A DNA stretch of 63,924 nucleotides, filler included, from Hausera hauseri (Eukaryota): the NCBI GenBank assembly GCA_046269625.1. It is 10 parts of 10 records of this genome, joined end to end, with 100 filler letters (N's around TTAATTAATTAA, not from the genome) between each part and the next. Parts side by side here need not be neighbours in the genome. Positions count along the whole stretch, not along the records: positions 4,578 to 17,336 come from JBJURY010016676.1; 9 more parts are not named here. One strand, 5' to 3'. Each line of letters opens with the position of its first letter. The first letter of the stretch is position 1. The notes under the pieces were generated by a model. It made no database searches. It was given only the letters and a program-made list of their open reading frames with translations, and was not told the DNA's origin. The translations under genes and the position numbers were made by a program. Below, in pieces: positions 4,301 to 46,679 of the stretch.

Positions 4301-4477
4301 AGTCCGTTTCTAAGAGGTTTCGGTATGAATTCGATCACACTTTTATCTGGGAATATCATTCTGGCGTGTATGACCATTCTAGAAGTGAGTGGTATTTTCT
4401 CAACATGTCCTACCCAAATGTCTGTTTTGTTGTAGTTAGGGGGTTTATCTTCATTATTTGGACAAATTGATCCTGAT
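1330..4477 (-). pseudogene. pol: Gypsy pol (RT-RNaseH-integrase), frameshifted
   Basis: LDLQSGFWQIPV, KTAF, PFGLK, SYIDDILI (RT); FTDHKAL, RLQRWKL, ADSLSR (RNaseH); HDSHLAGH...CKTC (IN zinc finger); YHPQCNG; GPY. Confidence 0.95.
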
Positions 4478-4577: not shown

Positions 4578-7000
4578 GAATCAGAAGTAACGACGTAAGA
4601 ATCGGTATAGTCCATCATGAAAACGCAGAAGCATAGAGAATAATAGGCGCTTGCCTTCTCGAATTAGATAAGTATAGAGAAGAATGTAACTACATGAAAC
4701 AAATCATAGAATTTGTACGAGGGCCAAATCACGAATTAAAAGTAGCTCTTGAGACATTAGATGAAATAATCTATGTTAAAGCAACAATATTTAAACAATT
4801 AAGGAAGTGGATAAACTTCTTACCTTCCATAGCAGAAGTAATAAATGAAAGACTAAAAGAATTCGCTATGGTTGAGCCTATAATGAGACATCAATTGGAA
4901 GAAATGTTACTAGGTATCGCTACAATGGAAGATGAAGCTAAATCGCGAATTAAATTTGAATCATTCCGAGAACTCGAATTTATGAGCAAGGATCAAGATC
5001 AAAAAACATTAAAAGAGATATACAGTATAATAGAAGAAAAGGAATTCTATAAAAAAGAAACAAGCTAAATGATCTTCAGCGAAGTTTACTAAATATCCGA
5101 TGGGAAGGGATACAGAACCTAATGCAGAAACCGTTGAAAGAAATTTCAGCACAAAAAATAGAAACATTAGAAGTTTGTAACTATCACCGGATTGCTCTAG
5201 CGCAAACACTACAATATTTACAGAATTTAAACGAATGGACACCAGGTTTCGACCTGCATTGCCACACCGAAGTAACGGAAATTAGAAAGGAACTTCAGCT
5301 GACGTCCGACGAAGCCAAGTTCATAGGCAAACAGATGGACTCAATAGATCCGGACGCCGAAGTATTAAATCAAGCACACAAATTAATTATATTATTAACA
5401 GAAATGGCGGAAGTTGACGAGGTAGTAGCCAAACGACTAATAAATCGAATACATTTGATAAAAGAAACCCGACTACGCTCCGAGAAAAGACAGGGCGAAT
5501 TAAATGAATTGGTAAGAGAAGTAGAGGTTTACAAGAACAAGTATTCCGTTAAGGAATCTGAAATCAACGACAAAATGGAATTTATACAGAGATGGCAAAA
5601 AGACAGAATCGCAGAAATAACTAGTTATCAAGAGAAAGCTCTGATACAACCAGAAGAAATATGCCGATTAATAACATTGATGCAACAAGCGTGCTGAAAC
5701 GGAGACGTATTTAGGATATCCGTAATGAAAACATTAAAACCGCAGATAAGAGAACTACGCGAACGAGTGATGTTGGACATACGGCACTAATGAACTACGA
5801 GTTACCTGACGCAGATAATGATGCCGAGTGGGATGAATATCTTTAAGGTTTAACCGAGCAAAGTCAAAGAACCCCAATACAAATTTATGAGTCACCTACT
5901 GGTGCCCAAAAGATGAAATTTGACGTGGAAATGTTACTTGACCTTGCTCTAGCTGTAAAGAAATTGAGCGGTGTATTGAAAATAAACATAAGTGAAGATA
6001 AGTTAATGAAATTGATTCCAACTTTGACTAAACCATCCAGTGAAAATACCGTATACAGCGCCATACCCAAGCTTTTAATAAGAGATTATGCTAAATTGCT
6101 AAGAGACAAACCAGAAGCGGAACTTAAAGTGAAGGTATTATCCGAAGTAATGGACGACGAGGAATTTGATTGTACTACCTATACTACCGTTGCGGATATA
6201 AAACAGCGGATAATGGATAAGAATGATAGGGAATGAGTTAGTTATCGACTATATTTCAGAGGCAGGATATTAAACAAGCTAGAATCCTTAATAGACGTAG
6301 GGATTATACCCCACGAAGAAAATCTAATAATAGCCATATTCACCAGTGAACAAACCAAAGACGAAGCCACGAGAAAAGCACATACAGACCATTGCATTGG
6401 ATAAATCATGGGAATTCAAGATGCCGCAATGTATTTCGAATACTTACAGACTGATGAGGACAAACCGCAATATGATAAGAATTTAGTCCCGCTGAGCGAA
6501 ACCGCACCACCAATAAAAGCGAAACGGCCGGTCGGAAAACCGAGAAAAATAAAAGAGATTGACTATAACGCAGATCTGATTAGAGAATTGAGACAACTAT
6601 CAGTACCAACCCCGAGTTTGGACAACGAAGAACTAATTGAGCTAATGAAATACCTAATTAGGATAGTCAATTATACTGGACTCCAAGGTGACGTATTAAC
6701 TGAGAAAGAAAGATTAATATATAATATAGCCCAAACAATGAAGACCTCGCGATTTAAACTATTTAAAAGTACCCTCCCTGACGAAACGGTAATCGATAGA
6801 ATTATGATTGACAATACGATGGAAGAATTAAGGAAAGTCTTGATATACTTTGCAGTCAGAACTAACCCTTTCCGGGAAAACGAAATTGATAAGGCAATTA
6901 AATTAGCTAGAAAAGCTGGAAAAGGGTACCTAAAGAAATTAAATGGACTAAATTATTCGAAAAAGAGGAGGAGATAATAGGAATAAATAACTTAGAAGAC
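4578..7000 (+). pseudogene. Gag-distal accessory region: long helical/coiled-coil segment, ubiquitin-like domain and AT-hook-like motif
   Basis: E/K/L-rich helical ORF fragments colinear with 31830-34748 (e.g. ELPDADNDAEWDEY vs RLPDAGNETEWDAY; LIPTLTKPSSENTVYS vs LIPTLTKLSSENTIYS); KRPVGKPRK at 6522-6548. Confidence 0.75.
6120..6340 (+). other. Ubiquitin-like (beta-grasp) domain, frameshifted
   Basis: LKVKV...TTVADIKQRI...YRLYFRGRILNKLESLIDVGI fits the ubiquitin pattern TV..LK..I...RLIF.GK.L.D...L.DYGI. Confidence 0.7.
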
Positions 7001-8900
7001 ATGATACAAAATATCTCTCCGAATAAAGGAAACAAATCCAGTTGGTTAATCAAGTTGCTGACGATAATGACGCTATTAAAGCAGTTAGGAACAGTTACTG
7101 TATATGATTGCGATAAGTTCAAAGTGGGTCAGAAATATTCCTTAATAAACCTAGAAACATGCGAAGATGCGAGACCTCACAAGCTCGAGACAGCAGAAAA
7201 AAGATATATTATATCAACAACGTGAATTAATCGCAATGAATACAACGGAATGCATGATATAGAGATCTCGCACGGGCATTTTTCAATAATCAAACCAACC
7301 ACACCATTGATTCCGATGAATATGGATAGACAGCACTGTTTAGGAGCCCGGTTAACTGGTAGAATGGTTTGTGAAAGTATGGAATTGGAAGCTCAAGAGA
7401 GAAAAATAATTAGAGCTTACAAAGTTGCAGTAAAAAAATTAAACATGCACTGTGTCGAAGGAGAATATGACATGAAAATGAATAGGAGGAGGAATAATAG
7501 TTGTAGATTTTTACGAAACCAAGTTAAGATCTCTAAAGGCAATGTTTCATAGCGTCACTAAACTAATTACCGAAAATCAAAAATGTCACATACAAGATGG
7601 CGCTTGTACGTTCCAAAGTTCAGTCGTGGTATGGAGCCCACTTTCTAAGAGAGATAGCAATTTCATCAAAATCAAAGAGTTAAAGTTTAATAAAACAATA
7701 GGAAAACGTTATACAAATAAATTACACACAAATATTAGATTGCGGGAAGATGTTATAGAACATTCCACACCGACGATATTGATATCGGACGCACACGGAT
7801 TGAAGTTTATTAGAAAAGCTTAGCTAACGTGTTGCGATTTAGTGATGTATACCACAAATTACGAAGCATTTTTCGTAGCAGAAACTGAAATCAACATGAA
7901 AACATATGACTTAAAAACACAAGATATTATCGGATTGAAGATTACTTCAAAAACCGAGACGACTACTTCTATTACAAAGGACAGACCGAAATAGTGGAGT
8001 TATATCACAAAATGATAACAAATAACTGCAGATTAGATACTGAAGTCATGGGAACCAAACTGGCCTTAATTTATGCCAACCCAGAATTGGCATCACCAAT
8101 TATATCAATGAAAAGTGTTTCCGGACAAGTTAGTGGGGAAATCCTATTAACCGACGAGTGCGAGAAAAGAGACGTACCGATTAACGTAGAAGAGAAAAGA
8201 TGCATGCAAAAATTACCGGTCATCTATGAAAATATGCCGAGAATAGCGATACCACTCACCAGAGTATTATTGGCGAACTCAGCCGAACCAACAATACTAA
8301 AGGAATGCAAAACGAGCTAAGGCGAAACCATGTTCCGACGTAGTGGAACCGACTGGATAAGTCTATCTAATGGAGGTGTTGCCACAGACCCTAGTAAGCT
8401 AAATGGGACAAATTTAATAAACGGATTATCAGAAGAGAAGTTTGAAGACACGGCCAATAAAGGAATTTATAGACCAAAGGACATAGAAATCTATAGGCAA
8501 TTCTTAGCTTTTCCACGGCAACGAACCTCTGAGCTAAATCGGGTCATGTCAATGGTCATGGACGACACCCGCTTTCAAGAAAAATGGAAATCATTACTTG
8601 GCGCTAACCGCTATCAAAGAGTAACTTTAGAAATATTGTATAAGATTTGGGGAAGATTTCTGATTTTCGGACAAGCTGCATCGGGATTCCTAGCCATATA
8701 CTTCTTAGTCTAATTAGTTAAAGCAGTAATCCAAGCTGTTATAAACGGATATGAAATATTCACATTAACAGGATTTCTCTGAAAAATTTTGACTGCAATT
8801 ATCACCCCCGTCGGGAAAATGCTCAAGGCCTACGAAAAAAACCGATGGAAAAATGACGTGGAACGCCAATTCTCAATAGACGTAAAAATAAGAAAATAGT
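7001..8900 (+). pseudogene. env: Env-like class III fusion glycoprotein, chuvirus G-like
   Basis: Signal peptide then VTVYDCD...YSL..LETC; NCRLDTEV...LIYANPE...GEILL..C...RCMQKLPV.Y...PLTRVL; GIY...FLAFP...LN; WGRFLIFGQAASGFLAIYFLV TM and a second hydrophobic stretch. Confidence 0.8.
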
Positions 8901-9429
8901 AACACAAAAGGATGATTCAGACGATGACGAGCCTAAGGGAGGAGAAGGGAATCCTAGAACAAAGATGCATAGGATGTACTCGGTGATAAACACACCAATA
9001 CCCATCCTGCCACTAACTACGACAATATATGAAGACTGTGACCAAAAATCAGTTGTGTCGTACAGGTCTGACATCTGCCGCAAACACATTGACTATGAAG
9101 ACCCTTATGAAAAGACGAAACAATATGGGGTACTACGAAAAAAGAATGTCACCAACTAAGGATTAATAGAAAACGATCACGGAATATTGTACTCAAAAAG
9201 GATACCGCGTCACATAGAATCAAAATTAACGATATGGGAGTACCCGAAACTGTGTTCAATTTCGGGTTCACTACCCCAGGAACCGCTCATTGACAGTCGC
9301 TTTACTGAAATAACAAATAACTACTTATACCCGAACGGAGAATTGAGACAACTAAGGCAAGTATCATTTTATCGCCAGAGATAACAATAAATGGACATAA
9401 AGCCTCTACCACAAAGCAGTCAAAGACAG

Positions 9430-12400
9430 CGTCAAATTGCCGTGGGACAGTATTAGAAGGAAGACCTTTGTCGAAAATACACATCGAAGATTGGGAAGTG
9501 TATGCATTAAACGACGCAGGATCAGAAAAGTCGTATATAAAATACGAATCGATACTGACCACACTGCGGAAGCAACTATGTCCACAATTATCATCAGATC
9601 CAGGTAGCATAGGAGCATTTGGGCAAGTATCAAAGCCGAAATATAATGAACCCCTACCATTTATATAATGGGCAAAACACTTCAACATGAATTTGCAGTA
9701 ATGGATCAATTAATAGACGATGTAGTATTAGGTTGTGATATATTGAAACGGATACCGGGCATGGTAATCGATGTACATGACGGAAAGTTAGTTGAGCTCG
9801 AACCAATAAAAGGGACAAAAGTAACAAAGGAAAGGAAATCATGCGAAGTATGGATTCTGGTAGACGAGGATATTCCGACCAGAACCAAAATGATAATTTT
9901 TGCACAGATTCGTTAAAACGAAGATCTGCCGGTGTATTTCGAGCCTCAAGAGAATATCGATCCAAACCTTATGTTTAGCAACATTCTATGTAGAGTAGTA
10001 ACGGGGCGAATATCTATCAGATTAGTGAACAGTGCACCAATCCCCGTAAGATCGCACGCTAACACTACTTTAGGTCACACTTGCAGAGTATCAGCAATAA
10101 CGATAGAAAAAAAGCCATATAAGTGCGCTGAGTTTCCACCTCACGTTGAAACCAAATTCTCTCCGGAGGCGTATTGCAAATTTTACGAATTACTATGCAA
10201 AAACCGTCCGATAATCGCACAGAATGAGGAAGATATATGCAGAGCAAAAGCCCTAAGATCAACAATCCCATTAAGGAAGAAACCCTGTTCGAATGATGAA
10301 ATCCATCTAGAAGAACAGAAAATGCCCAAGTGGTATCCACCTCCCCATTCATTGAGACCGGAAATAACTAAAGAGGTAGAGCGAATATTAAAGGTCGATA
10401 TAATTCGACCAAGTTACCGATCTTGGTACTCGCCTATGCTTATGGTCAAGAAGAAAGGAACTACAAAACATCCATTTTGTATAGATTACCGGGTATTAAG
10501 CACACTGATGATGAAAGACTCGTTCCCCCTACGGTCAGTAAAGGAGGCTTTAAACAGACTATAAGGGGCGAAATGGTTTACCACTCTTGACTTACAATAT
10601 GGATACTGGCAAGTAGAAATCAAAGAAGATCGATATAAGACAGCATTTAAAACACACGATTGCGTATATGAATTTAATGTTACGCCTTTCAGCATCACTA
10701 CAGAACCAGCTATTTTTACTATAATGATGAATAAGATGCTTATTGGACTTGATCATGCTTTCCCGTATTTGGATGATGTAATGATAGCATCGAAAACAGA
10801 AGAAGAACACTTAAAAGACATTGAGGATACACTCATGCGACTAGAACAAGCAGGATTGAAACTAAATTCAAAGAAATGTAAATGGGCACAGAACGCAATA
10901 TCGTACCTCCGACACATAATTGGAGAAGGAGGATCAAAATCGGATAAATTCCTGCTGGATAAAATATCCGATTGTATGGAACTGCAGAATCAAAAAGAGT
11001 TAAGGCATTGGTTGGGCCTATGTGGGTATTATGCTACTTATGTACCGGACAAATCGAAAATTAACGCACCACTATATTGCCTACTGAAAAAGGGAACTAA
11101 TTGGAAATGGAAGGAAATGGGGCAAAAATCATTCGATGAAATGAAGAAGATTTTCACGAGCGAACAAGTCCTAAGATACCGGATTTTAATCTACCATTCA
11201 TCATTAAAACAGATGCAAGTAAAGAAGGCATAGGATACGAATTAGCTCAAAAGCGAGAAGATGAAGAACTAAAACACCCAATGGACTATGGAGGACGCCC
11301 GTTAAAGAAAGCAGAAAAGAATTATTCGGTTACCGAATTAGAAACGTTAGCCGTGAAGGAAGCACTACGACACTTTAATATCTGTCTATGGGCAAAAGAT
11401 TATAATAGTGACCGACCACAAAGCAGTTACGACATTAAAAGGACGAGCTAATAACCCAACATGTAGATTAAACCGTTGGATCGAAGAAATCTCAAGATAT
11501 AACATTGAATTCCAATACAAACCAGGTAGTAAACACGTCGACGCCGACGCACTATCAAGGTTAAAGACAAAAACAAGTGGGATTACCACAATGCAGAAAA
11601 CGCAACTCGAACTAATAATTGAACGTCAAAGAAGCCTAACTCTGGATAAAACGATCAGGATCACCGCAGAGCAAGCTAAATATAAGGTTATTCAGCAAAT
11701 TGTTGAGTTCGCACAAAACGGCAAAATACCCAAAAAGACGACAACTGAAGAAGCATCTACAGAAACACGGACATAAATACCGCGCATCGAACCTAGATAA
11801 TATTCTATATTACGAACGAAAAGGAAGAAGACTAATAGTTATTCCAAAAGGATTACAAATCGAAGTACTCATGGCCGAGCATTGGCCAAGCATTTATATC
11901 GATGTAAAGAATTGGGTAGGCACTTGCGAAGTTTGCGCGACAAAGCAAAGGAAAACAAAAGGCTACGTAGCAGAATTAAAACCCATAAGCGTACCAGATA
12001 GGCCCATGCAAGCTATGTCTATGGATATAGTGGGACCTTGCCTAAAACGCACAAAAATAACAGATATATTCTAACTTGCGTGGATCGGTTAACGCATTTC
12101 GTCGAACTGGTGACACTATTGGATCAAAAGGCAGAAACTTTAGCCGACGCAATAATAAGGAAAATCATCTGCAGATACGGACCACCAGAACAAATCTTAA
12201 CGGATAGAGAAAAGAACTTCACAAGCGAATAATTCGCAAAAATTACCAAGATATTCGAAATCAAACGTTTAACCACTACCGCGTACCACCCTCAATGTAA
12301 TGGAATGGTCGAACAAATGAACGCAACAGCCATTCATATACTATCAACAGTAGTGGCCAAAGACCAAAAGGATTGGGACAAATTCCTAGAAGGGACACAG

Positions 12401-12870
12401 TTCGCAATCAATACGACCCCACATCCAGCAACAGGATTTACACCATTCTTTATGATGTATAGACGAGAGGCAATCTTACCCATGGATCTAGGTATGACAC
12501 CGTACGAAAAGAACATCGAGGATCTAGAGCAAAACTTTTCCGAAGTCTTGCAGATAAGATTGCAAGTGTTGGGAAGTTGCTAAAACATTATCACTCGAAT
12601 ACCAGGAACAATTTAAAAAAAAATATGATAAAAAGACTAAGCCCCATGATTGGGTTTATATACATTACCCAGTCGCGAAGAAAGGTACATCCTTGAAATT
12701 AACCCGTACCGGAAGAGGACCATATAAAATCGTCCGCACAACGCCAACCACGGTCTATGTTAATAAAAACGGTAAAGAGGAAGTCGTATCAATCCAAAGA
12801 GTAGTTAAAACAGATATAAGACCAGCTAAACACTACAATTTAAGACAGCGAAACGCCAAGACCTTGTCGA
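9430..12870 (+). pseudogene. pol: Gypsy pol (PR-RT-RNaseH-IN), frameshifted
   Basis: ALNDAGS (DTG in the sister copy at ~50000) and VLGCDIL; FCIDYR, LDLQYGYWQV, YLDDVMIAS; TDHKA, DADALSR; MDIVGP, TDR, YHPQCNGMVE, GPY. The IN zinc-finger His region carries a short deletion near 11880 relative to the copy at ~18020. Confidence 0.95.
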
Positions 12871-12879
12871 TAATCACTA

Positions 12880-14301
12880 GACCGGTATCATACGCACAGA
12901 TAATAGTAGACTTATCGTTGATTGCTGTCCTAACGCCTAAGTATAACGCACAATGGTGGGTCGATGAAACTTCGTTGAGCGATATATATGGAATCAAGAA
13001 AATCAAATTAAAACCTTCACCGCCAAGGGAGGGAACTTCTGAATACAAATCGGAACAAAAAGACGAAAAATTTTTATGAGCAATAAAATTAGATTATTTT
13101 TCGCCAGAAGCTCCATGTGTAGGGTTTAGGATACCAGGACCATATGAGGGGCAAATCCAGATACTATTCCATGACCTATTAAACCAAGCCGAGTCTGATT
13201 GTAAATTCGAGCCAGAAGACGATACAATTTGCTGCAACTTAAAGTACGGACACACTTACGCCCTCAGTTATCGTTTATATTTGTCAAACTGCAATAATGT
13301 GCACGCCGAAATAAACCTGAATTCACGTTTATTTATACCACGAACTTATGGAGACTACCTTAATATAGAGCTAGAAAACATGCTCCAGTCCACCGATCCA
13401 ATAAAACGGATGCTAGAAGAAAATATAGCTAATATAACGGAAAACCAAAAGGACAACTGTATCCAAATAAACACAAAAGGACGGTTAATTAAAGGACGAG
13501 TAAACACGATTCAATTTATGAGAGAGGACAAAGCAGCTCATAATCAACAGTACTGTCAAATTGACGCCGGAAGGCCGAATAAGTGTTGTAAGTTACCTCA
13601 AAGTTATAAATATAGAATTCGGTTAGACTTATATGAAGTTCGACCGAACCAGTCGAGTATTTACCTAGGAAGTTATCAATTGGAAAGCCCAATTGGGAAA
13701 ACTCCACCTGAGATGACAAAAAGCAAAATTACGACTACAAAAACGAATATGACCACTTCTACATCCACCAAAATCATCCAAACAAGTGGTTTGTCTCAGA
13801 AGAATCTGGAAACGATTCCTATAAAATATCGGACACAGCAACATAAAATAACATTCATTGTGGAAGAAGCACTTAATTATGACATAGAAATAAGCTGCCA
13901 AACATTACATAATAACCAGAAAGTAACACTGGCTAAAGGTACCTATCAAATCAAATGTACCTACTTGAAACCCAAAACAGACTACATAATACAAATAGGT
14001 GCAGAGAACAGACAAAGTAGAACGCTTACGGTACGGACCCTAAACGAGATTGTCTTAACGAAACCACTAACTAACAAGGAAACGGAAGACAAAACTACGA
14101 CTACCACTAAAACGAAAAACCTAACTAAATGGACAACTCTCAATAATATTGATTATTGGATCGTCAACGTTTGCTCTCATAACTTTTGTTGCGTTTTTCC
14201 GATTTATTACCAAAAACTGCTGTAATAAGCGTCATAAAATCACCGAGAGGGAATTAAGGGTAATGGTACCGCAGGATGGAATCAATTATGGAGTAACCTG
14301 A
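12880..14301 (+). pseudogene. Integrase-fused type I membrane protein (signal peptide, two Cys domains, Thr-rich stalk, FN3-like domain, TM, short tail)
   Basis: YAQIIVDLSLIAVL in frame with IN; PCVGFR...ICCNLKY; CIQI...YC...KCCKLP; TTTKTNMTTSTST; YLKPKTDYIIQIGAEN...TVRT; hydrophobic segment ~14140-14210; ends ...YGVT-TGA. Confidence 0.72.
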
Positions 14302-14307
14302 CAATTA
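14299..14307 (+). promoter_or_regulatory. Putative stop-codon readthrough signal TGA-CAA-TTA (stop-CAR-YYA)
   Basis: Same context (TGA CAA CTA) at 20471-20479 and 45318-45310; matches the tobamovirus-type stop-CARYYA motif. Confidence 0.55.
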
Positions 14308-14384
14308 CAGGTCGGGTTATTCCACCATAAAACAAAGAATTGGTTCAGATTTAGAACAATACTTTGTTATAGGATATAACCTTA

Positions 14385-14399
14385 TTTTTTGTCTTTCAG
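14385..14399 (+). promoter_or_regulatory. Putative splice acceptor (polypyrimidine-TTTCAG) just before the ORF4 ATG
   Basis: TTTTTTGTCTTTCAG-A-ATG; equivalent TTTTTCAG at 20564-20571 and at 45238-45228 (minus). Confidence 0.55.
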
Positions 14400-14980
14400 A
14401 ATGGTAAGTACAGATAGCCGCATTAGTATCGACGAGTATTTACGGAGACAAGTTACAGTGTTTATTTCGAACGCAAAATCTATCTATAGAAGGATAACTG
14501 AAGCATTGCAGGCAAAAACCTATGCCGAATTTTCGAAAACCAATGAAATTCCCAATGATCTAAAAGGTATTATAGAGGAAAATCGCACAGTCTTCCTTTA
14601 CGCAATGCGCGAAGGTAACCAAGATAAAGCATATTCCCTAAAGGAATTAATCCGAAACAGACTAGCCAAAATTCAAGACATACATCCATTTAGCCTACGG
14701 AGAAATATATTATAGAATAGAAAACCAACCCTGGAACTCCAACGAAGGACATCAATACCGGTTCAGTACATTTAAAATAAATGGAAGAGGTTTAGAACAT
14801 ATCAATTACAGCCTAGAATTTAGAGTAGCTGCCCTTCCTGTCAAACTTATGATCGCAGTGACCTCCAGAGAAGATTGTAACTTACAGTTGCCGCCCTTAG
14901 AATTTGAGCAAATTCCAACTGAAACAGAAAAGGATGAACATCACCAATCATATAGACTAGTCTAAGACGGTCGCAACGTA

Positions 14981-15470
14981 AGAATCATCGCGATAAACTG
15001 TGGCAGAGAAAATGATGGATATGGAATACCCATAGAAGTATCTATTAGGGAGAGAGACGGGATCGAAATATACTCTACAATCATAAATCCCCGAAAACGT
15101 GTCCAAGAATCGTATGCGGAAGTGACCGGTTTAAGGAAAAAGCAGCTCACAGGAGGAAAGGACATTAAGCAAGTCCGTTCAGAATTGGATCATTGCCTTT
15201 ACGGTTGTATGTTAACAGGATATAACGTGCAACGATCAATCCAGCTACTAGAAATATCCGATGCAAATATTGCCGGAATAAGGGAAATGGCCACTCACCC
15301 AATAATCCAAAAACAGATGGAGAGAACCGTGCAAGGAAGAAATCATGCACGACCAACCGCTCCAAAAGTCTTCTTTAAGTTAATGATCGAAGCAATGAGC
15401 AATGACTCGAGTAGAATTCAAAGACTTTTAACGGCTAGCCAACGCTCCAAATATTTGAAAGAAATTTATA
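14981..15470 (+). other. ISG20/REX4-like DEDDh 3'-5' exonuclease fold lacking its catalytic acidic residues
   Basis: RIIAINCG...EVSI...IYSTIINPRKRVQESYAEVTGL...L..G.DIKQVRSEL...L.G.MLTGY...IREMATHP...ASQRSKYLKEIY tracks the REX4 pattern VA.DCE...RVSI...YVKP...V.DYRT..SGI...ILVGH...D...RDT...H.SVEDA.A.M.LY. Confidence 0.65.
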
Positions 15471-16463
15471 AACCATTAAAGTGGGAACATGAATGGGTCC
15501 CTAGAAACCCCTTATACAATTTACGCAGTTCCCTGAAGCCCGAACAAATAGATACAAGATATAGAAGGAATATCAAACTCTACTCTCCGACCAGAACTGT
15601 CCAGTCGATGGGCAGGCATAGTCTTACGATCGCCGTGCTAAAACCTATGGAAGGACAAGAGGAAAATAAAACGGAATTACAAACGATCGAAAAAGGAAAC
15701 AAAATACTCAATAGAACGTCAAAGTCTCTAGAAGAAAACAAAGAAGAACTGAGGCCGGAAACAATAATAAAGAAGCAGAAATTAGAAGAAAAGCCCCAGT
15801 CCAATAAAACGCAATCTATTTACAACTACTTATTCAAGAAAAAAAGAAAAGACGAGAAGCTAAAAGATGAAAACCAACAAATCGAACCAAGTACCTCTCA
15901 GAAGGTCAAATCCGTAGAGAAAAAAATCAGTGAACCTATGATAACCGAAGTCAATGTCCTTTTAGGAAAAAAGACCGAAAGAAATGTCCACTGTAAAACA
16001 ACTCAGGACTCATCAAGAATGTTAATAACCACAGAATATTGAAGTAAGAAAATGATTAAGGAAGCTATGTTCTATATCAAAGTTGTCCCAGCAAGAGAAG
16101 TTTTCGAAAACACTTATGTATGGGAAAATCCTAAGTTGGGAAATTACATTACCTCCGTCTTCCGCTCAAAAAGAACGGGAAAGTTAATAGTACCAGTAGG
16201 TAAACAAATCCGGATATTACTAAAAAAAACAGTATCAACGATATCGAGTAGAAAGGAAGATCCCGGATTTAGACCAAGACTTTATGGTGGATTGGACCCT
16301 AGTGCAAGTAAGCTGCGATCAAAGAAAAAGTTCCATTAACCCTAAGCAGAAGGTAATTCATGGATACCTTTATCAAGACGGGGATGGTCTTATATTCGAG
16401 CCTATTGAATTAACAATCCAAGTTGACTTAGATCGAGATGATTGGGACAAGGAAGAAAATGAA

Positions 16464-16593
16464 TGCCGTGTGCGATGTCAACCTGAGACAAGGCTATGTG
16501 GTCTTGGATAACAAGATTTGCCGCCACAAATACTGTCGGGATTGTTTGGAGAAGTGGACACTCGACAATGGAAAAACAACATGTCCGGTATGT
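16464..16593 (+). other. C3HC4 RING finger (frameshift within the first Cys pair)
   Basis: C.VC...CRHKYCRDC...W...TCPVC; intact in the copy at 43706-43840. Confidence 0.88.
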
Positions 16594-16815
16594 CGAGCGG
16601 AGGCTACGGATCTGGAATATTATTCTGATGGAAGTTACACCTGAGTCGTTCGTATTAAGCCCTACCACAGTTATGATCTAGAGACGAACCCTTTAATAAG
16701 CCAAACCAACCGGATTCCCAAACTGATTTACGAGAGAGGATGGATCGATTAAGGCGACCAAGGACATTAGGCGCCACCTCTTCTGACGCAATAGGCTCCT
16801 TCGAGGATGCCGCTC

Positions 16816-16827
16816 AGGGAGCAGAGA
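16816..16827 (+). promoter_or_regulatory. Polypurine tract
   Basis: AGGGAGCAGAGA followed by TGT; equivalents at 23117-23128 and 43494-43483. Confidence 0.8.
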
Positions 16828-17336
16828 TGTAATAAACCAGATTATGATTGGTGAAAATATTTTTAATTCAGACCGTAATGATTGAAATGTAAATGTAAAT
16901 TTATTTATAGGTTATTTATGAAATTGTCGGCTCATTTTAGAATAGTACTAGAATATGCGATCGTTTATGACTAACAAATAATTGTAAAAATATTTATGAT
17001 TGAATTGTAATGCAAAAGAATGCAAATATATTTAGAAATATTGTAAATAAATTAATGGAGTTCCAGACTTGCTACTATATAAGCAGATTCTAAAACGACC
17101 AAATTGAACCAGATGTGAACAGGTTAACCAGTTGTTGACCTTAAAGTCAGAATCAAATCGAATTGTGCTAATTGACGATATTAGTTATATTCGGAATTAT
17201 TCGACTACTCCTGACGTGTTATTTCTTGTGTGGAATAATGAAGGTTATTTGTATTTTGTCGTTAATATTCCCTATATAGTTTGCATCGTCTCTTAAAGAT
17301 GATTTGACTACATTAAGGGTAAAATCAGAATTAATC
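16828..17336 (+). repeat. 3' LTR, truncated by the contig end
   Basis: TG start after the PPT, AT-rich, TATATAA box near 17076. Confidence 0.75.
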
Positions 17337-17436: not shown

Positions 17437-19080
17437 AAGAAAGCCGAAAAGAATTATTCCGTTACTGAATTAGAAACCCTAGCCGTTAAAGAAGCACTTC
17501 GGCATTTTAATGTTTACATATACGGACACAAAATTATAATTTTTACTGATCATAAAGCCGTCACGACTTTAAAAGGACCAGCAAATAATCCGACGTGTAG
17601 ACTTAACAGATGGATTGAAGAAATTTCTAGATACAATATCGAATTTCAGTATAAACCTGGAAACAAGCACGTAGATGCTGATGCACTGTCGAGGTTAAAA
17701 ATTAAGACGAGTACAATTACTGTTATGAAGAAAACTCAGCTCAAGGAAATAATAGATCGCCAACGTGCCATAACACTGGATAAAGCAATTAAAATCGCAG
17801 CAGAACGAAAAAGGATAAGGTTATTCAGCAGATTATAGAATTTACAAAAAGGGACATCATACCAAAAGGATGACAACTAAAGAAACAGTTACACCGGAAC
17901 GGGCATAAATACTGTCTTAAATGGCAAAGGCAATGAAGATATTTTATATTACGAACGAAATGGAAGAAAATTGATAGTTATTCCAAAAGGTTTACGAACC
18001 GAAGTTTTAATGGCAGAACACGACTCATATTTAGCAAGACACATGTCATGGAAAAAGACATAGGAAAGTATATAGAATAAATACTTTTGGCCCAGTATCT
18101 ATATTGATGTGAAGAACTGGGTAAATGCTTGTGAGGTATGTGCGACTAAACAGAAAAAGACGAAAAATTACATGGCGGAACTGAAACTAATCAACGTACC
18201 AGATAGACCCATGCAAGCCATGTCAATGAATATCGTAGGACCCATAAGAATAATAAATATATCTTACCCTGTATTGATCGTCTAACTCATTTTGTCGAAT
18301 TTGTAGCTTTGATTGACCAAAAGGCAGAAACTTTGGCGGAGGCTGTAGTGAGAAGAATTATTTGTAGATATGGACCTCCAGATCAAATATTAACAGATCG
18401 AGGAAGAAATTTCACAAGTGAACTATTTGAGAAAATTATTAAAATATTTGAGATTGAGCAGTTAACTACTACCGCATACCATCCTCAATGTAATGAAATG
18501 GTTGAACGGATGAACGCAACCGTCATACGCATATTATCCACAGTGGTAGACAAAGACCAAAAAATTGGGACGAATTTTTAGAAGGAACTCAATTTTCCAT
18601 CAATACTATACCACATCCAGCGACAGGATTTACACCGTTATTCATGATGTATGGACGTGAAGTTGTATTGCCCACAGATTTAGGAATGACACCATACACA
18701 GTAAACCCCGAAGAGTTAGAACAAAATTTTGCAGAAGTGCTACAGACACGACTACACAAATGTTGGAAAATTGCCAAAGAATTATCGCAAGAATATCAAG
18801 AACAGTTTAAAAGCAATATGATAAGAAAGCGAAGTTAGACGATTTAGAACAAGGAAATTTGGTTTATATTCATTACTCAGTAGCTAAGAAAGGTACGTCG
18901 TTAAAACTGACTCGTACAGACAGAGAACCGTATGAAGTTGCTAAAGTTACGTCAACTACGGTGCACATCAACAAAAATGGAAAAGAAATCATATCAGTAC
19001 AGAGAGTCGTTAAGACAGAAATACGGCCCAATAAACGTTACAACTTACGACAACCCGAGACAAAAACTTCTTCAATAATT
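17437..19080 (+). pseudogene. pol: RNaseH-integrase portion of pol
   Basis: NYSVTELETLAV, TDHKA, DADALSR, HDSYLARH...CEVC, LTDRGRNFTS, YHPQCN.MVER. Confidence 0.95.
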
Positions 19081-20473
19081 ACTAGACCGATTTCATACGT
19101 TCAGATAGTTTTAGTACTGTCGTTAATTGCTTCGTATATCCCAAAGGCACAAACTCAATGGTCGGACGACGAAACTACGCTAGAAGACGTATATGGAATC
19201 CGGAAGAGCGGATTAAAACGGAAAACCGTCGTAGTGGAAAAGAAGCCAACGCCCGAAGAAATCCAAAAACCAGAAGACAATTTTTGACAAACAATGAAGG
19301 CTCAATACTTTTCGCCAGATGCTGTGTGTCGGATTCAAACTCGGAGACCACATCACGATTTTGGGAAATTCCAAGTAGTGATGCATGATAAGGCAGGGAA
19401 CGAAATCAAAAACTGTGATTTCGAACTAGGAGATTATACACAATGCTGTGACGTAAACTACGGATGCACGTAAATCCTTAATTACCAATTAAATCTAGCA
19501 GACTCACCTGAAGTCTACGTAGAAGTAGACCCAGAGCTCCAATTAATTATGCCAACATTAGCCCGACGATTCGAAATAAAACTCGACGAAATGCTACAAT
19601 CCACCGACCAAAATATAAGGCGATTAAATAAAAATATCAAAGGGATCTCAGTTAATAATAAAAAACAATGCATCCAAGTAGATGCTCGAACGGGATTAAC
19701 TCTGAGTCAAGAAATTAGCATTGTTTTCGAAGCAGTAAACGGAAAACTCCGAAAATAGAATACTGCTCTGTTCATGCCGGTGTGCAACACCTGTGTTGTA
19801 AGCTACCAGTAAACCAAGAATTCAAAATAAAATTTGACTTATATGAAGTATGACCGAATAAACCGAGCAAGCACTTGCGAACGTATTATCCAGAAAATAA
19901 AGTATGGAGAATTTCAATAGAAACGACGACCAAAAGGCCGACCACTCGAGTTAGTACCATTATGAAAATCGTTACATCAAGCCGTGTACCCAAAAGAGAA
20001 TTAGAAAGTATACCTATTAAATATTCGGCACACCGATTTAAAATTGTGTTCTTCGTAGAAAAACTAAATTACGATATACTTATAAGCTGCCGAACAACGT
20101 ATAATAATCAAATAGTAACATTATTTAAGAAGACTTACCAGACAGAATTCAATTTGTTAAAACCACAATACGATTACATAGTACAAGTATATGCAGAAAA
20201 TAAGCAAAACCAAACAATTACATTGCGTACCTTAGATGAAATTCGTGCAGAATCGCATATATACGAAAACAGACGATGAAATCACAAGCACCAATGGGAT
20301 TAACCATTTTACCGATCGTGTCCACTTTTGTACTATCAACATTTTTTCTCATTATATTAATTGCGATTTTTCGGTTAGTTGCCAAAAATTGTTATTCTAA
20401 GCGTCCTAAAACTACAGAATGGGAATTAAGGGAATTGAAAACCCCTATCGGTCCATATGATAAAATAACCTGA
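19080..20473 (+). pseudogene. Integrase-fused type I membrane protein
   Basis: YVQIVLVLSLIASY signal; Cys domains; NLLKPQYDYIVQVYAEN...TLRT FN3-like; TM ILPIVSTFVLSTFFLIILIAIF; tail ends YDKIT-TGA. Confidence 0.75.
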
Positions 20474-20587
20474 CAACTACAAAGCTGGTTATTCTATCAT
20501 CAAATGAAGAATTGCTTTTATTTCTAGACCATCCCTTATTGTAAGAGTAATCCTTACTGTTTATTTTTCAGATTAAAGAGTATTCAC

Positions 20588-22950
20588 ATGGCCGAACGAT
20601 ATAGTATCGACAACCAACCAAAAGGAACCAGTCAAAAACGTCGATATAGTATCGACGAGTTTCTTCAGAAATATGCCGCCGTCTTCCTCCCAAATTCCAA
20701 GTCCATATATCGAGAAATTCATAACGAATTGCATGAGAAAACTTTTGTGAAGTACGATCAGATTAGTAGAATTCATAACAATCTAAAAGGTATTCTGGAA
20801 GAAAATAGAACTGTCTCTCTCTACGTCATGCGAGAAGACAAGGACGCCCGAGCATACACCCTCAAATATTTATATCCACCTGGAGGACAGTGAGATATAC
20901 TATCGATTCAAATATCAAGAATGGAACGCTAAAAACGAAAGGTAATACAGATTTAACATCCTTAGCCTACGTAGCGGAAATTTATAGCACTATGAATTAG
21001 AATTTCGAGTAGCCGCCCTTCCTGCAAAATTGATGTTCGAGGTGACTTGCCACGATTACCCCTATATCCAACTATCACCTTTGAAATTCTATCAACAACC
21101 GTCAGAAAAGCATTTGGACACATTCTTACAATCGTGTAGACTAGTGCAAGATGCCCGAAATACAAGAATCATAGCAACCAATTGTGGACAAGGGAATGAC
21201 GCGCAAAGGATTCCAATGGAAGTCTCAATGCGAGAAACAAGAGAAACAGAAGTATATTGTACGATTATTAGCCCGCGAAAACGCGTTCGCGAGACATACT
21301 ACGATACGACAGGAATTCGCAAAGAAACGCTTCCGAGAGGCAGAGACATCAAACTTGTCCAGGCAGAGTTAGAACACTGCTATATGGATATATCCTAGCT
21401 GGATATCGTATCGATAGGATTATCGAGCTCTTAGAGATACCCCGCTCAAGCATCGTAGGAACGCGTGAGATAGGGACACACCCAGTAGTCGCCGAACAGA
21501 CTAAACGAATATTGCGAGAAAGAAATTACCCTATGCCAAAAGTTATGGATGCCTATTTTAAGTTAATAGTTGACGCCATGAACAGCGAACGCGTTAAGAT
21601 TAGCAAATTGTTGACTGTAAGCCAACGTACCCAATACTTACGCGATATTTATGTAGCTTTAAAATTGGACCATGAGTGGACACCCAGTAATCCAGAACAA
21701 AATTTACGAAGTCCATCAAATCCGGACACTATAAGCAAAAAGTATCGGAAGCAGTATCGTTCGTATTCCCGTGCAGAGTCGTTGAAACTATGGGACAGGA
21801 CGATATCAAAATAACTATTCACAAATCAGATAGAATGAGTACCGATTTTCCCAGCACCAGTCGTAGTTCTCATACTAAATCTAATTTACCCATCAAGAGA
21901 CCAAGTCCAAAACAGGAATCAATAATAAAGGAAATAACCACAGTTGAGACCTTTAAGGTTCCACAAGTTCCCCAAAAAAGACAGAAAATTAAGATACAAA
22001 CTCCAGCAGTTAAAAGAAAAACATCCTTCTAGGAATACTTGTTTAGGAAGAAAAACAAAGGAACGAGCTCAACCCAAGTACAAGAAGACCGAACCAGTAA
22101 AAGGAACGAAGAACCCGAAAATTCAGAGATAGCAAGAAAAATTCCAACGACATCTGCAAATAACCTGACGACAATTCAAGTTCCAGAAAAACCCAAGAGA
22201 TCGATACAGAAATACAATGACCCAAAAGGCCGATTTATACAGCTATTCACGGAAATAAATTCGCTTAGGAAAATGAACTCTCAGGTAGATGTACATTTTA
22301 CAACAACTAAAGATTACCCAAAAATGCTAGTAACTACCGAATATTATAGTCACAGGAAAATCAAAGAAGCCATGTTTTTCGTAAAGATGACACAAGCAAG
22401 AGAAGTTTATGAAAACACCTACATTTGGGAAAACTCTAAAATAGGAAAGTATATCGCCCCCATCTTTTAGTCGAAAAGAAAAGGCAAGTTAACCGTACCA
22501 GTAGACAAACAAATAAAAACCTTGCTAAAGGAAAAATATCAGAGGTATAAAAATGATGGTTAAATTCCCGATTTAGATCGAGATACCACTGCTGATTGAA
22601 TATTAGTACCAGTAGTTTATGACCCTAGAAAAAGTTCCGTAAATCATAAGCAAGATAATCCATGGTTACCTATACCAAGATAAAGAGGGTCTCATATTCG
22701 AACCCATCGAACTCATAATAGGAGTAGATTTAGACAACGAAAAATGGGATAAAGAAGAAAATGAATTCCCAGTATGTGAAGCGAATCTCAGTCAAGGATA
22801 CGTCGTTCTAGACAACCGCGATTTCCGACATAAATATTGCCGAGATTGTTTGGAAAAATGGACTCTAGACAATGGAAAAACTACATGTCCCGTGTGTAGA
22901 GCCGAGGCGACCGAATTAAAATATTTTTCGAATGGTAGTTATACCCGTGT
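20588..22950 (+). pseudogene. ORF4 (inactive DEDDh exonuclease fold ~21165-21655; RING ~22765-22897)
   Basis: RIIATNCG...EVSM...IISPRKRV...TTGI; RHKYCRDCLEKW...TCPVC. Confidence 0.72.
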
Positions 22951-23128
22951 AGTCCGAAAAAACCCCATTACAGTTATGAATTGGAAACAAATCCCCGAGA
23001 AACTCAGCCAAATACGGACTCAGAAGTAAACTTATATCGACGGACAAATCTCCTAAGACAACCACGATATGGCGTCACCTCTCCTGATGCAGTGGGCACA
23101 TCCGATGATGCCGCTCAGGGAGGAGAAA

Positions 23129-23726
23129 CGTTGTAAAGATGTCCAATGTTGTAAGATGTCCAGAAATTGTAAATACTGTTATAAGCAGCAAATACTGTTA
23201 TTGTAAATAATTATTATTTTATGATATTTTCTCATTAATGTACAAACTTAGGAATTTGTACAAATATAAAGAAGGAAATTAGTAATAATTCGGTATATTT
23301 TTAGAATTTTCGGAAAAGGCGTTGAATTTATATTAATTTTTAAATCTGAAAAATCAGTTAAAAACTGTTTATAATTCTGAATAATCAGTCACGTACGCAG
23401 TACAGTCTTGTATATATACAGCAGAAAAAGAAATTAAAAATTGTTGAGAAGTCGAAAAGTATTAAGAAGTATTGAGTTGAGAAATTAAATTGATAATTGA
23501 AAACCTTTTGAAGCCAGATTTGCAAGTTGCTAAGGATCATTGAAGTTGGGAAGCAAATTCAGATTGAATTCGAGAAAACGACTGATTTGGTTCGATACTG
23601 TGGTGTATCCAGTAATTGTTTTGTTGTAAAATATACTTATTATTTTAAAATTCTTATATAATTTTTCATTGCCCCATAAGGGTGATTAGACTACACGAAG
23701 GTCTAAAATTCTACGGTAAATTAACA
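23129..23726 (+). repeat. 3' LTR (~600 bp)
   Basis: Follows PPT AGGGAGGAGAAA; starts CGTT (TGTT with a T>C change) and ends TTAACA; TATA-like box at ~23411. The right end is inferred. Confidence 0.65.
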
Positions 23727-31400: not shown

Positions 31401-31827
31401 GAATTAACGGACTAGTTGGCTTAATTATGGAGGAATGTCCGTGTATTCGTCCACAGTGGAAGATGCTATGCGATCGTCTCAACATGCACTCCATTCCGTC
31501 TAACGATATCAATTCTTGTTGTTGATACAGGAAGTAACTTTTCTCTCTCGTTTCCAATTTGTGCGGTCGGGCGTTTTCGCATACTTCCAGGTCCACTAAG
31601 GAGTATCTCTGTCCTAATTTAAACTTATCGCAATCGTAGACGGTTACCGCACTTATATGCTTTATTAGCATCATTAAGGTAAGCAAGCTAATTAGCCAAT
31701 TTGATTCACTTTTCCGACCTCCAACGTCTGACGTTGTCAGGTTACGTAACACATCGTCGAGTTTATTGTTATTTCGTTTGTTTTCTTCCTTGTCGAATAA
31801 TCGTGCCCAATTTACTTCGCAAGGCAT
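31401..31827 (-). pseudogene. env: Chuvirus-like glycoprotein N-terminus
   Basis: WLISLLTLMMLIKHISA|VTVYDCD...YSLVDLEVC...LYQQ...ECMLRRS..IFHCG..GHSSII. Confidence 0.8.
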
Positions 31828-32199
31828 TCTTCTTGCTGCTCTACGTGAAAAGCTTATAGTCCTATTGATTTTATTCTCTCGATTAGGATTTATTTTAATA
31901 GCTTAGTACAGCAATACTTTCTCAATTCTTCATTTGTGTTTTCTACCATTATTTTTTCTATTACTGACTCGTTGGTTAAGTTACTTTTTGATAGTTTGAA
32001 ACGTGAACTTCTCATCATTTTGGCTGCATCGAAAATTATCTTTTCTTTATCATCTAACACATCCCCTCGAAAACTAGAATAATTCACAATTCGTATTAAA
32101 TTTTTCATTAATTCGCTTAATTCCTCGTTATCTGGGCTAAGAGTCAAAATCGACATCTGTCTCAATTCTCTAATTAATTCTCCGTTGTAATCCAGTTCT

Positions 32200-32645
32200 T
32201 CTCGGACTTTCCTAGGTCTACCTACTGGGCGTTTCGGTCTTGGACCCTTAGTGGTTGTTTCACTTATTGGTATTAAATTTATGTCGTATTGTTCCTTATC
32301 GTCGTCTGTTTGTAAATATTCAAAATATAGTGTAGCGTCTCAGACTCCCATGATTTGTCCTACGCATTGTTCTGTTTTGGCTTTACGTGTAGCTTCTTCT
32401 TTTGTCTGTTCGTTAGCTATTACTACCACTATCCGATCTGTTTCGTCAGGAATAATCCCGACGTCTTTTAGTTGTTCTAGGTCATCGAGTATTTTACCTC
32501 TAAAATAAAATCTGTAGTTTAACTCGTTCGTTCCACCATTGTTTACTAGCCATTCTTTTACATCCTTTACGTAGGAATGTGTATTTAATTCGCATTCTTT
32601 TTCGTCCATCCATTCGGATGACACCATTACCTTTATCGTCACCGC
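32200..32645 (-). other. Ubiquitin-like domain followed by an AT-hook
   Basis: TIKVMV...SYVKDVKEWL...YRFYFRGKILDDLEQLKDVGI; PKRPVGRPRK at ~32240-32210. Confidence 0.75.
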
Positions 32646-35336
32646 AGGTTTAGCCCTCAAGATCTTAGCGTACTTCCTTATCAAAACACTTCGGCACCGT
32701 ACTATAAATCGTGTTTTCACTAGATAGTTTAGTTAAAGTTGGAATAAGTCGTCTTAATTTACTCCCAGTAATGTCTACGCTAATTAGCTCAATCAAATCC
32801 TTTTCAGTTAGCGCTGAATCTAGTAGCATCTCCACATTGAATCTCCTATCCTGCGGGCATGTTTCTATTTTGTTTAGTTGTACTGGAGTCATAGATTTTC
32901 CGGCAAGTATTTCGTCGAAGTATGCATCCCATTCGGTTTCGTTTCCGGCATCCGGAAGTCGATAGTCCACTAAAGCCGCATTGGCTCTTTGAATTTTTTC
33001 CCGAATTTTCTTTAATCTAGATTGTATTCCTTTCATTTGCGTAGTTCGGAAACCTACTCCATTTCCACAGGCATACTGAATCATTTTCAGTAATTCTCCC
33101 AATTCGTTCGGGCCAACCAGCCCTTTCTGGTGATAATCTGTCAGTTCAAGAATCACATGTTTAGCCATTTTTATACAAATTCTCCTTTAATCTTAATCTC
33201 GGATTTGGTAAACGCATATTTGTTTCGATAGACTTCAAGCTCTTTTGTTATTTTATCTAACCTTATTTCTCTTTATTTTGTCTTAATACGTGTTTCTTCT
33301 ACTTCCTGTATCTTGGGCGTTAATCGCCTGATCTGCTCATCACTAATTTCTGCCATTTCCACTAATAAATAGGCTCATTTAGGCTCATTTATAACCTTTG
33401 AATCAGGGTCCACTGCATCCGACAATTTCTTTACAAACTTGTGTTCTGAAAGCTAAAATGTGGGTCGTTTCCGATTTCTATCAACTTGGTATGAAGATTC
33501 TGGTCTGATCCGGCCATCCATTCTTGAGGTTTGTGTAAAAACCTTATTGCATCCGTTAACGTATTTCGATATCCTGGACAAATGTCCAATATTTCAATGT
33601 CTGGTACAGAAATTTCGTCGATTGGTTTTCCGGTTAAATTTTGAATCCCTTCTAGTCGGACAATCCTTAACTTTGAATTTACATCGTAAATCATATTCCG
33701 TTTCTCCATAAAGTTTGTCTCTTCGATCAATTTGTAGATTTCCTCCATCATCGACGCTTCCCGTTCTGTTTTCATAAATTTTAGTCGTCGTAGCGCTTCA
33801 AATTGAGTACGGATGTCTTTCTATCCGCAACGTGGCTAAATTGTGTGCGCTTTCCTCTAGTTGCTTCTTCACCGTTGGCTCGCTTTGCGAAAATTCTGTT
33901 TTACGATCTTCTACCAATTTAGTTAGTCACCTTACTAACTCGGACCATTCCGACAGTTGATTTGCAATTACAGGTTTTGCCATTATAGCTTTATCTAACA
34001 TCTTATAGGCACCTTTCAACTCATCGTCTGGTCCTTTTAGGTAATTCATAACTCGACCGATATAACTAAACTCATCCCTATACTCGTTTAATTCAACGAT
34101 ACAAGCCTTTATTGTATATTGAGTATCCTCGTAGTTTGGGAACATAATTTGATTTTTCATATCATAAATCTGTGCTCGTGCTTCATTTTCTATTTTAGTA
34201 CGACTCTCTAAATTCGTATATTGTCCAGGTACGGCGAACGTGAGTTTATTCATTTCCATTAAGGGAGGAATATCTACTAAGTCTATACCCAATATTTCTA
34301 AATCGATATTACTTCGATGGTTAACCGGTTTTCCCCTAAGTTGTTTGGCCATTGCGTATCGAATTTCGTCCATCGTACGCTCTAAATTACGAACTACTCT
34401 GTTCAATTTTGGGTTTTCCTCCAAAGTTGATAGTAGCGTTTGAGCCTTAGTAACTTTTACATCGACACTCTCGTCATTCTTGTTACATCCTTCGGAAAAT
34501 TCTACTCCGCTTTTAATCCATGATTCCATTTCCTGCTTCCATTTTAACAACGTTTCGGTTGATACCTCGTCGGGTTGTTGTACGTCAATTGCTTCCGCAA
34601 ACTTGCCTTCGCTATGCAGTTTGAAACTTTTATATCGCTTCTCAGCGAATTGTTGTTCTTCTCCAGATATGTCTACTTGTTTGCTAATTTGTTTAAGCTG
34701 TTTTAGGTCAGACTGTAATATTTCTGACTCATAACGTTTGTTTCTCAATTTCCTTAATTCATTGGCGTTTTTCCATGAATGTCGGACTTTTTACTTCTTG
34801 CAATCGAAATCATCAGTATTCGTTGTTTCTTCCTCACTAGTAGGAAGTGGACAAATCACGTTAATTTTATTGATTTCCTCTATAGACCCCGCTACTCCGA
34901 CAGGTGTGTGTGAACCAATTTCTGGTGTATTCAAACTATGGTCCGTGTCGCCTCCTACAACGACGTTCGGTTTTTCGATTTCTTTAATTTTCTTTCTAGT
35001 TATTTTGGAACGTGAACGACTTCTTCGTTTCGTTTTTAGAGAGGGGCTACGGTCTCTATTTTTCGTAATGTTAAGTAATAATGGCTCCATAAATTCTTTT
35101 TCTGTTGTATCAGGTGTATCATCCTCAGTAAGCTTAACTACCTTTTCAACTGTAAACTCAGGTTCTGCATCTACGTCGACTGCCGTCGATGTGCCTGGTT
35201 TATCAGATGGTTTATTGCTTGTCGGAACGCTCATTTTTCGTGTCATATCGATTCGTTTAGGTGCTATCGCATGTTCATATTCAGTTTCTGATTCTGCTGA
35301 ACCATAATATACTTCTAGTAATCTCAGCTTATCTCC

Positions 35337-35920
35337 TTATTCTCTTCTAGCCATCAGAATTTGTAGGTTAATGGTATCCGGTTGAGCATCTAGGAATTTT
35401 CTCAAATCCTGTATATCGATGATAGTGCCTATATCTCCACGAATTCCATACTTTGCTTCTAAATTCTCATTGATTCTAATCATACTAGTCTTATTTGGCT
35501 TAGTAAATGAGACGCTGCGTGGGTTTGGGTATGACCTTGAAATGTGTCCTTCTTTGCCACAAGTAAAACAAACCAAATTCTCATTTCTGCCGACTCTCTG
35601 TCGACCGTCTTCGTTCACTGGTGACTTAGATCTATTCGTACCCTTATTGTACTGATTTGGCAAACTTTGCACATTGTCGGCACTTCGTCTATTATCGTTA
35701 TTTCGGTTATCACCGTTTTGATTCGAGTAGTTCGAGCCTTTATAATTTCCTCTATTCCTATCCTAGTTAGGGTCTGATCTGTTCGTATTTGTATAATTAC
35801 TACTTCTATCATTTCTGTAACCGTCATTATTATTTCTATTCCCATAATTTCTGTTACCCGTAAATCGTCTGTCGTCTCTTCCACGATTATCATTGCGATT
35901 TCTATCGTTCCGGTAATTTC
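35337..35920 (-). pseudogene. gag: Gag C-terminus: R/D/N-rich low-complexity region and CCHC-type zinc knuckle
   Basis: CFTCGKEGHISRSY (last Cys changed to Tyr), preceded by NDNRGRDDRR-type repeats. Confidence 0.75.
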
Positions 35921-43482: not shown

Positions 43483-43649
43483 TTTCACCTCCCTGAGTTG
43501 CGAACTCGGATACATTGCCGATCTCAGTAAAGAATCCACGGACGTCCGGTCTTCTCAAAAGATTTAATCGCCTACGTAAGCTTGTTTCTGAATATATCCA
43601 TGGATTGGATTCTAGGAAATAACTAGTACTTGGCCTATCCGGTCAGATG

Positions 43650-45217: not shown

Positions 45218-45315
45218 ACTTACGTTTCTGAAAAAAAAGTTAAGCCTAAAACAGATGATTGCTTTAAAACAAAACATTCGCTCTTTTGATGACAGGATTA
45301 CTTGATCTGTAGTTG

Positions 45316-46630: not shown

Positions 46631-46679
46631 TTTTCTTTTCTCCTTTGCTTCGATTCTGGGTTTCGTTATTAGACTGTGG

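Follow-up and report, generated by a model that had tools for sequence, protein, structure and literature searches.

The stretch of DNA analysed here (the window, 63,924 nt) consists of ten contigs joined by N44-TTAATTAATTAA-N44 spacers, with linkers at positions 4478, 17337, 24098, 31301, 35921, 42119, 51450, 55540 and 59716; because separate contigs have been joined, the element copies within it are not neighbours. One Ty3/gypsy element family is present on four of the ten contigs, with 65-73% identity among its copies. The GC content of the window contigs is 33-41%. The features of the copy that holds the glycoprotein gene (env), followed by the three sister copies, are listed below.

4578..16840 (+): large Ty3/gypsy element, decayed copy, recognised by domain order, tblastn with natural polyproteins and colinear sister copies
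4637..6071 (+): remnants of a long helical stretch separating gag from the ubiquitin-like domain, of no family, colinear by tblastx with 32689-34112(-)
6090..6404 (+): ubiquitin-like domain (Pfam ubiquitin)
6405..6977 (+): basic motif and helical block, standing where relatives have a Bcl-2-like domain
7001..8899 (+): env, a broken gene for a chuvirus-like, HSV-gB-type class III glycoprotein (PF24664, profile, hydropathy)
9470..9770 (+): aspartic protease remnant (weak match to gag-asp_proteas in Pfam, E 0.21; aligned by tblastn with polyproteins from 9665 on)
9833..10120 (+): segment separating protease from RT, aligning with relative P0003; Burro has a dUTPase-like domain there
10145..11600 (+): reverse transcriptase and RNase H (RVT_1, E 2.1e-21; RT_RNaseH, E 1.4e-5)
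11680..12920 (+): integrase with H2C2 zinc finger, core and C-terminal part, frameshifted (Pfam, tblastn)
12860..14225 (+): second predicted type-I membrane protein (hydropathy, motif, relatives' profile)
14966..15550 (+): ORF with a DEDD/RNase T-like exonuclease fold (Atlas feature matches of 0.93-0.94 to PF00929 clusters)
16465..16600 (+): RING finger at the 3' end (zf-RING_2, E 1e-7)
31401..35920 (-): sister copy with gag CCHC knuckle, helical region, ubiquitin-like domain and env N-terminus
43600..51449 (-): sister copy with env C-half, protease, RT, RNase H, integrase, 3' cargo and RING
17437..23137 (+): sister copy with RNase H, integrase, membrane module, exonuclease-like ORF and RING

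The copy at 4578..16840 has lost its 5' end at the edge of contig 4578-17336, and that at 17437..23137(+) is a 3' half whose env region falls outside its contig. The stretch 4643-7300 has a colinear counterpart in the copy at 31401-35920(-). No convincing LTRs, terminal repeats or polypurine tract were found in the window copies, all of which are ended by contig edges. Of the words searched, 43% occur in a single run, X1, and no RNA run was listed with them. From the X1 run, which may be the source sample, 22,214 contig records map on 4600-17300 and cover 30 of 30 bins, a depth that is no measure of copy number and that fits a many-copy family.

Elsewhere in the window, gypsy-type pol remnants lie at 1375-4332(-) and 28248-30273(+), with no env on their contigs. 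Two host-like exons were seen, one for a divergent forkhead domain at 41610-41780(+) and one for the end of a cytochrome P450 at 42219-42377(-); they could be placed in a protein family, and gave no pointer to the host phylum. Contig 8 holds a RING-like ORF (52890-53327(-), Pfam) as well as a Cys/His-rich ORF without a family assignment (51550-52044(-)). The decayed ORFs at 57770-59698(-) had no Pfam match; we take their likeness to be to a Polinton/adintovirus polymerase-associated sequence.

Genes flanking env

Pfam was run on the 52 window ORFs of 120 aa or more. Upstream of env, the helical region at 4637..6071 matched no family at cut-off. The evidence for gag is a single CCHC knuckle at 35535-35573(-) (E 1.6e-4) in the 31401-35920 copy, and no capsid domain was seen in the window; in that copy it would fall outside the contig. 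The initial annotation had placed the glycoprotein between gag and pol; its position 5' of pol is clear, and gag is represented by this knuckle in the colinear copy. The ubiquitin-like domain has Pfam E-values of 1.9e-5 at 6090..6404 and 1.2e-4 in the sister copy, both just below the curated cut-off, and by hhalign it matches the domain at the same position in relatives P0154 and P0003, with 0 of 60 shuffles scoring as high. The basic motif within 6405..6977 we take to be AT-hook-like. A Bcl-2 likeness of the block at 6567-6974 is not supported: against the Bcl-2-like block of P0154 and P0003, 9 of 60 shuffles scored as high by hhalign, and the Atlas gave no match.

Downstream, the protease remnant has D-A-G at 9513 and D-T-G in the 50060-49800(-) copy, no dUTPase was matched by Pfam at 9833..10120, and the RT motif YLDD stands at 10766-10777. 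The pol of the element carries frameshifts and stops. The membrane protein that follows the integrase has a Thr-rich stretch, an anchor at 14143 and, at 13965, a motif that is presumably fibronectin-type-III-like. This module is present in three window copies (12860-14225(+), 19075-20370(+) and 45420-45815(-)), each with an anchor and a motif related to the C-x2-L-x-P-x-T-x-Y/H that, together with a signal-like stretch and an anchor, ends four of the five full-length relatives examined (P0003, P0008, P0154 and P0156 have the module). Among 715 pieces scored with a profile of the relatives, ORF 13080-14222 came out on top (E 2.2e-4), and hhalign gave a weak match (E 0.09, 1 of 50 shuffles as high). 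The exonuclease-like ORF at 14966..15550 had no Pfam match, its acidic catalytic residues are not evident by eye, and it recurs in the copy at 20988-21814(+). By eye, relative P0083 has a DEDD-like stretch ahead of its env. The RING finger is common to three copies (16465..16600(+), ORF 22643-23029 and 43700-43840(-)). No MATH, BIR or ankyrin was found among the 52 window ORFs, the element copies being partial.

The Ty3/gypsy identity of the carrier, as originally proposed, is borne out by RVT_1, RT_RNaseH and Integrase_H2C2 matches and by a gypsy pol order. A BEL/Pao carrier, or a layout created by assembly chimerism, is extremely unlikely. The RT has YLDD and its matches are gypsy-type, and no BEL-type Pfam family, such as the pol domain DUF5641, occurs among the 52 ORFs. 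The contigs are short, yet the layout repeats on separate contigs, and X1 contigs (X1 being possibly the source sample) run from both flanks into env, with joints at 6918-6998, 6918-7019, 8775-8876 and 8865-8917. One X1 record passes straight from 6923 to 10255 and leaves out both env and protease. What speaks for a BEL/Pao carrier is that elements of that superfamily do carry such glycoproteins according to the text of PMC13524379, as in the chuvirus glycoprotein-bearing BEL/Pao elements described from mosquitoes (Dezordi 2020, PMC7642597), which share the glycoprotein family with the window but belong to another retrotransposon superfamily.

The env gene and its predicted protein

Three of the 52 window ORFs matched PF24664 (Monjiviricetes fusion glycoprotein) above cut-off, at 7910-8320 (E 6.6e-12), 8321-8713 (E 3.7e-11) and 31345-31902(-) (E 1.6e-7), and the conserved cysteines of this family are present in env. 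A profile of 90 relatives, run in six frames over the whole window, located env only at 7001-8854, 31417-31701(-) and 50880-51450(-). Read in frame from 7001, env begins with a hydrophobic signal-like stretch (hydropathy 1.9) followed by YDC at 7103; C..LPV...P.TR.L begins at about 8201, GIY..K stands at 8462 with FP next, and W..F..FG.A.SG.LAI forms the C-terminal membrane anchor at about 8657-8750 (hydrophobic peak 2.3). All of these motifs had been named in the initial annotation and all were found at 7001-8899(+), as was, in the 31401 copy, the CG..H that it had reported there: this motif is intact only at 31402-31809(-) and lost from the 7001 copy. The statement that the glycoprotein lies upstream of protease in two copies also proved correct, with env 5' of the protease-RT-RNase H-integrase block both at 7001 and in the 43600-51449(-) copy, where its C-half occupies 50836-51444(-).

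The gene at 7001 is split into five frame pieces with internal stops, both copies showing most of env are broken, and the env copies of the window are dead. Differences between copies at codon positions 1/2/3 number 58/36/130 in env and 62/36/143 in RT, and 15/6/27 in a second comparison; this third-position bias, like that of RT, indicates that env was under selection when the subfamilies split. These data bear on the idea that a chuvirus-derived endogenous fragment landed accidentally in a single gypsy copy, to be passively amplified afterwards. Such an event is conceivable, given that Jingchuvirales glycoprotein fossils often adjoin LTR-Gypsy fragments in arthropods, as stated in the text of PMC10084718, and the broken state of both env copies would agree with it. 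However, the identical position of env in copies that are only 65-73% identical, its RT-like divergence, and the lack of any chuvirus gene other than the glycoprotein among the 52 ORFs by Pfam all argue against it, and natural relatives whose env and pol share a single open frame largely refute it. We therefore regard passive amplification as very improbable.

The env C-half was modelled with X at the stops on an 85-row alignment, yielding a monomer with a pLDDT of 83 and a pTM of 0.49. In BFVD its best matches were chuvirus-like and related negative-strand RNA virus G (E 2e-10), with 24 matches at E<=0.001 and low TM-scores, while Foldseek against the PDB gave none at E<=0.001 and weak rows that were all gB (best E 0.017). 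Relative P0011, which is 29% identical to the window env over the C-half, gave a model of pLDDT 83 that matched Tacheng tick virus 4 G (E 1.4e-44, TM 0.54) and herpes gB (Z 10.8, rmsd 6.9, 388 residues). Among the PDB sequences retrieved by a profile of the relatives, 30 of 31 were herpes gB (best E 0.0034). The structural comparison suggested in the initial annotation came out in favour of the proposed class in BFVD and gave weak rows in the PDB. Together with PF24664 and the P0011 model, it makes the assignment of env as a class III, gB-related, chuvirus-like glycoprotein well supported. By analogy with this class, the intact protein would presumably have had membrane-fusion activity.

Relatives and descent of env

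A phmmer search with the window env returned 383 relatives. The identity of the window env to any relative is at most 33%. An env-profile search returned five proteins, none of them a named virus; a word-index search of the env C-half against longer proteins gave no match, and no related loci were found in metagenome contigs. Nineteen of the best 150 listed relatives were scanned for domain order: env is followed by protease in one frame in 10 of the 19, and five of these ten also have RT in frame; one protein has env after integrase and one (P0044) carries DUF5641. Among the best nine phmmer matches, protease follows env in one reading frame in seven. Cluster members include env-pol polyproteins of 3,003 aa and 4,844 aa. 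A Bcl-2-like domain lies directly ahead of env in relatives P0004, P0011, P0019 and P0284, the P0011 model matching Bcl-xL with Z 8.9 and rmsd 2.5 over 79 residues. The order in P0284 is capsid-CCHC-Bcl2-env-protease-ankyrin, which is the Burro order given in the text of PMC6431247.

Several of these relatives have peculiarities of their own. The 4,844-aa P0156 has six aspartic-protease-like stretches, and both it and P0008 carry several such repeats with ankyrin or C2H2 inserts. In P0121 (1000 aa), immunoglobulin domains are fused to a full PF24664 glycoprotein, which may be a gene-model artefact. The best env relative, P0003, was deposited as a Flavobacteriaceae MAG protein (HBK71150.1); since its domains are those of a eukaryotic retroelement, that MAG bin is probably contaminated.

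For the two env trees, 66 and 30 rows were chosen out of 157, named viral G being absent from them. The window env groups with the env-before-protease proteins (support 100/99) on a long branch, and in the quick env tree it likewise stands apart from the stand-alone and BEL-like matches; P0044, with its DUF5641, falls in that other group. Profiles built from the env-near relatives and from the other matches (the latter omitting 2 of 12 rows) scored the N-terminal piece of env at 74 versus 19 bits and the middle piece at 63 versus 4; neither piece had any part in choosing the env-near relatives.

For RT, the first tree left out 11 of 129 rows for short matches and the second used 45 picked rows. 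The RTs of the two window copies pair on a long branch without a resolved sister, and the window RT is 32-46% identical to the 120 matches listed. When RT was held with the env-near set, the AU test gave p 0.56, with a likelihood higher by 3.0 log units.

The initial annotation had favoured an independent capture of a chuvirus-like glycoprotein by a gypsy lineage; on this reading its position 5' of pol would be a product of convergence. The low identities of both RT and env, the RT branch without a resolved sister and an AU p of 0.26 for placing env with the stand-alone/BEL-like group instead are compatible with such an event, and GAG-ENV-POL elements as a whole are not monophyletic according to the text of PMC13524379. 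On the other side stand the 100/99 grouping in the best env tree, the ubiquitin-like domain and post-integrase membrane module common to the same relatives, and the likelier tree with the RTs held together. We thus consider independent capture unlikely. The closest relatives of env are polyproteins that have env before protease and share the ubiquitin-like domain, which makes inheritance likelier than fresh capture; shared cargo and the best trees favour, without proving, inheritance within one lineage. Env probably came down with this lineage from an ancient capture, of a glycoprotein of mononegavirus/chuvirus type, and was not newly captured.

Taken together, we are largely confident that the locus is a broken env belonging to a Ty3/gypsy element that is decayed, present in many copies and has env before pol, that the element is likely Burro-like GAG-ENV-POL in a host that is likely a flatworm, and that its env was probably inherited. 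Counted against this reading are the RT without a resolved sister, the lack in the window of Bcl-2 likeness, LTR or capsid, and the host comparison with Schmidtea mediterranea, whose genome is >70% A/T as against the 33-41% GC of the window contigs and to whose elements the likeness was judged by eye only.

Relation to known GAG-ENV-POL elements

The position of the glycoprotein 5' of pol had been thought novel, and it is already in print. Planarian Burro elements with env between gag and protease and a mononegavirus-like G were described in 2019 (PMC6431247), and GAG-ENV-POL Ty3/gypsy errantiviruses with gB-type env are described from flatworms, nematodes and bryozoans (Chary and Hayashi 2026, PMC13524379). 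Burro/GYPSM1, as described in PMC6431247, resembles the window family in its mononegavirus-type env between gag and protease, its ubiquitin/SUMO-like domain upstream of env and the additional domain room that separates protease from RT; that paper also notes numerous decayed copies, as in the window family, for Dugesia japonica. The same text describes a single ORF of ~4,900 aa in an element of >30 kb with LTRs from a planarian host, and a cargo that varies. Burro has a BCL2-like domain before env, whereas the likeness of the corresponding window block was equalled by 9 of 60 shuffles; MATH, BIR and ankyrin belong to the Burro cargo and were not seen in the partial copies of the window. Conversely, the window family, unlike Burro/GYPSM1 as described in PMC6431247, has RING and exonuclease-like ORFs at its 3' end. 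As several Burro features were not seen in the window or lie beyond its decayed copies, we file the family as Burro-like GAG-ENV-POL and not as Burro itself.

With Platyhelminthes_Smed_errantivirus_1-6, which the supplement of PMC13524379 lists as six elements from Schmidtea in copy numbers of up to 215, the window shares a Ty3/gypsy pol and a gB-type env ahead of it. By eye only, motifs of env domains I-II in the window and its relatives are shared with these six elements and not with the bryozoan rows. The errantiviruses of PMC13524379 are intact by that study's inclusion rule, whereas the window family is decayed and divergent, its env and pol both carrying frameshifts and stops. Non-canonical ERVs of nematodes that have env ahead of pol (Sacco et al. 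2022, as cited in PMC13524379) resemble the window in placing a glycoprotein captured from an RNA virus upstream of a Metavirus-type pol. Bdelloid LTR elements carry a DEDDy exonuclease as an extra ORF (Rodriguez 2017, PMC5408684) and so share with the window an exonuclease-like ORF 3' of pol; as described in that paper their env is paramyxovirus F-like, in contrast to the gB-type env of the window, whose exonuclease-like ORF seemingly lacks the acidic catalytic residues. The layout, then, is known already, and the window adds one more divergent, decayed GAG-ENV-POL family, now dead, to that group.

In the once-active element, gag, ubiquitin-like cargo, env and pol would have been made as one polyprotein or in tightly coupled frames. 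An internal signal stretch would direct env to the ER, where its anchor would stop transfer, so that protease, RT, RNase H and integrase stay cytosolic; signal peptidase and the element protease would then free the parts. A trimeric class III env could enable enveloped particles to fuse with adjacent cells, spreading the element from cell to cell within its host, much as an endogenous retrovirus with a borrowed fusogen might.

The second membrane protein after the integrase is common to the relatives and, as far as text searches of PMC6431247 and PMC13524379 go, seemingly undescribed there. In the main text of PMC13524379, the words 'fibronectin', 'exonuclease' and 'Burro' are absent; searches for a fibronectin-like protein after integrase found no relevant literature. 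We put forward, as a tentative and rather doubtful proposal, that the clade encodes a two-part entry machine made of a gB-type fusogen and a fibronectin-like stalked membrane protein, with exonuclease-fold and RING products as counter-defence cargo in the window family. In such a miniature-herpesvirus-like arrangement the post-integrase membrane protein might serve attachment or triggering.

The finding would matter more if the host lay outside flatworms, nematodes and bryozoans. Herpesviruses keep a partner protein with their gB fusogen; if the second membrane protein indeed works with env, retroelements with gB-type fusogens would keep a partner protein as well.
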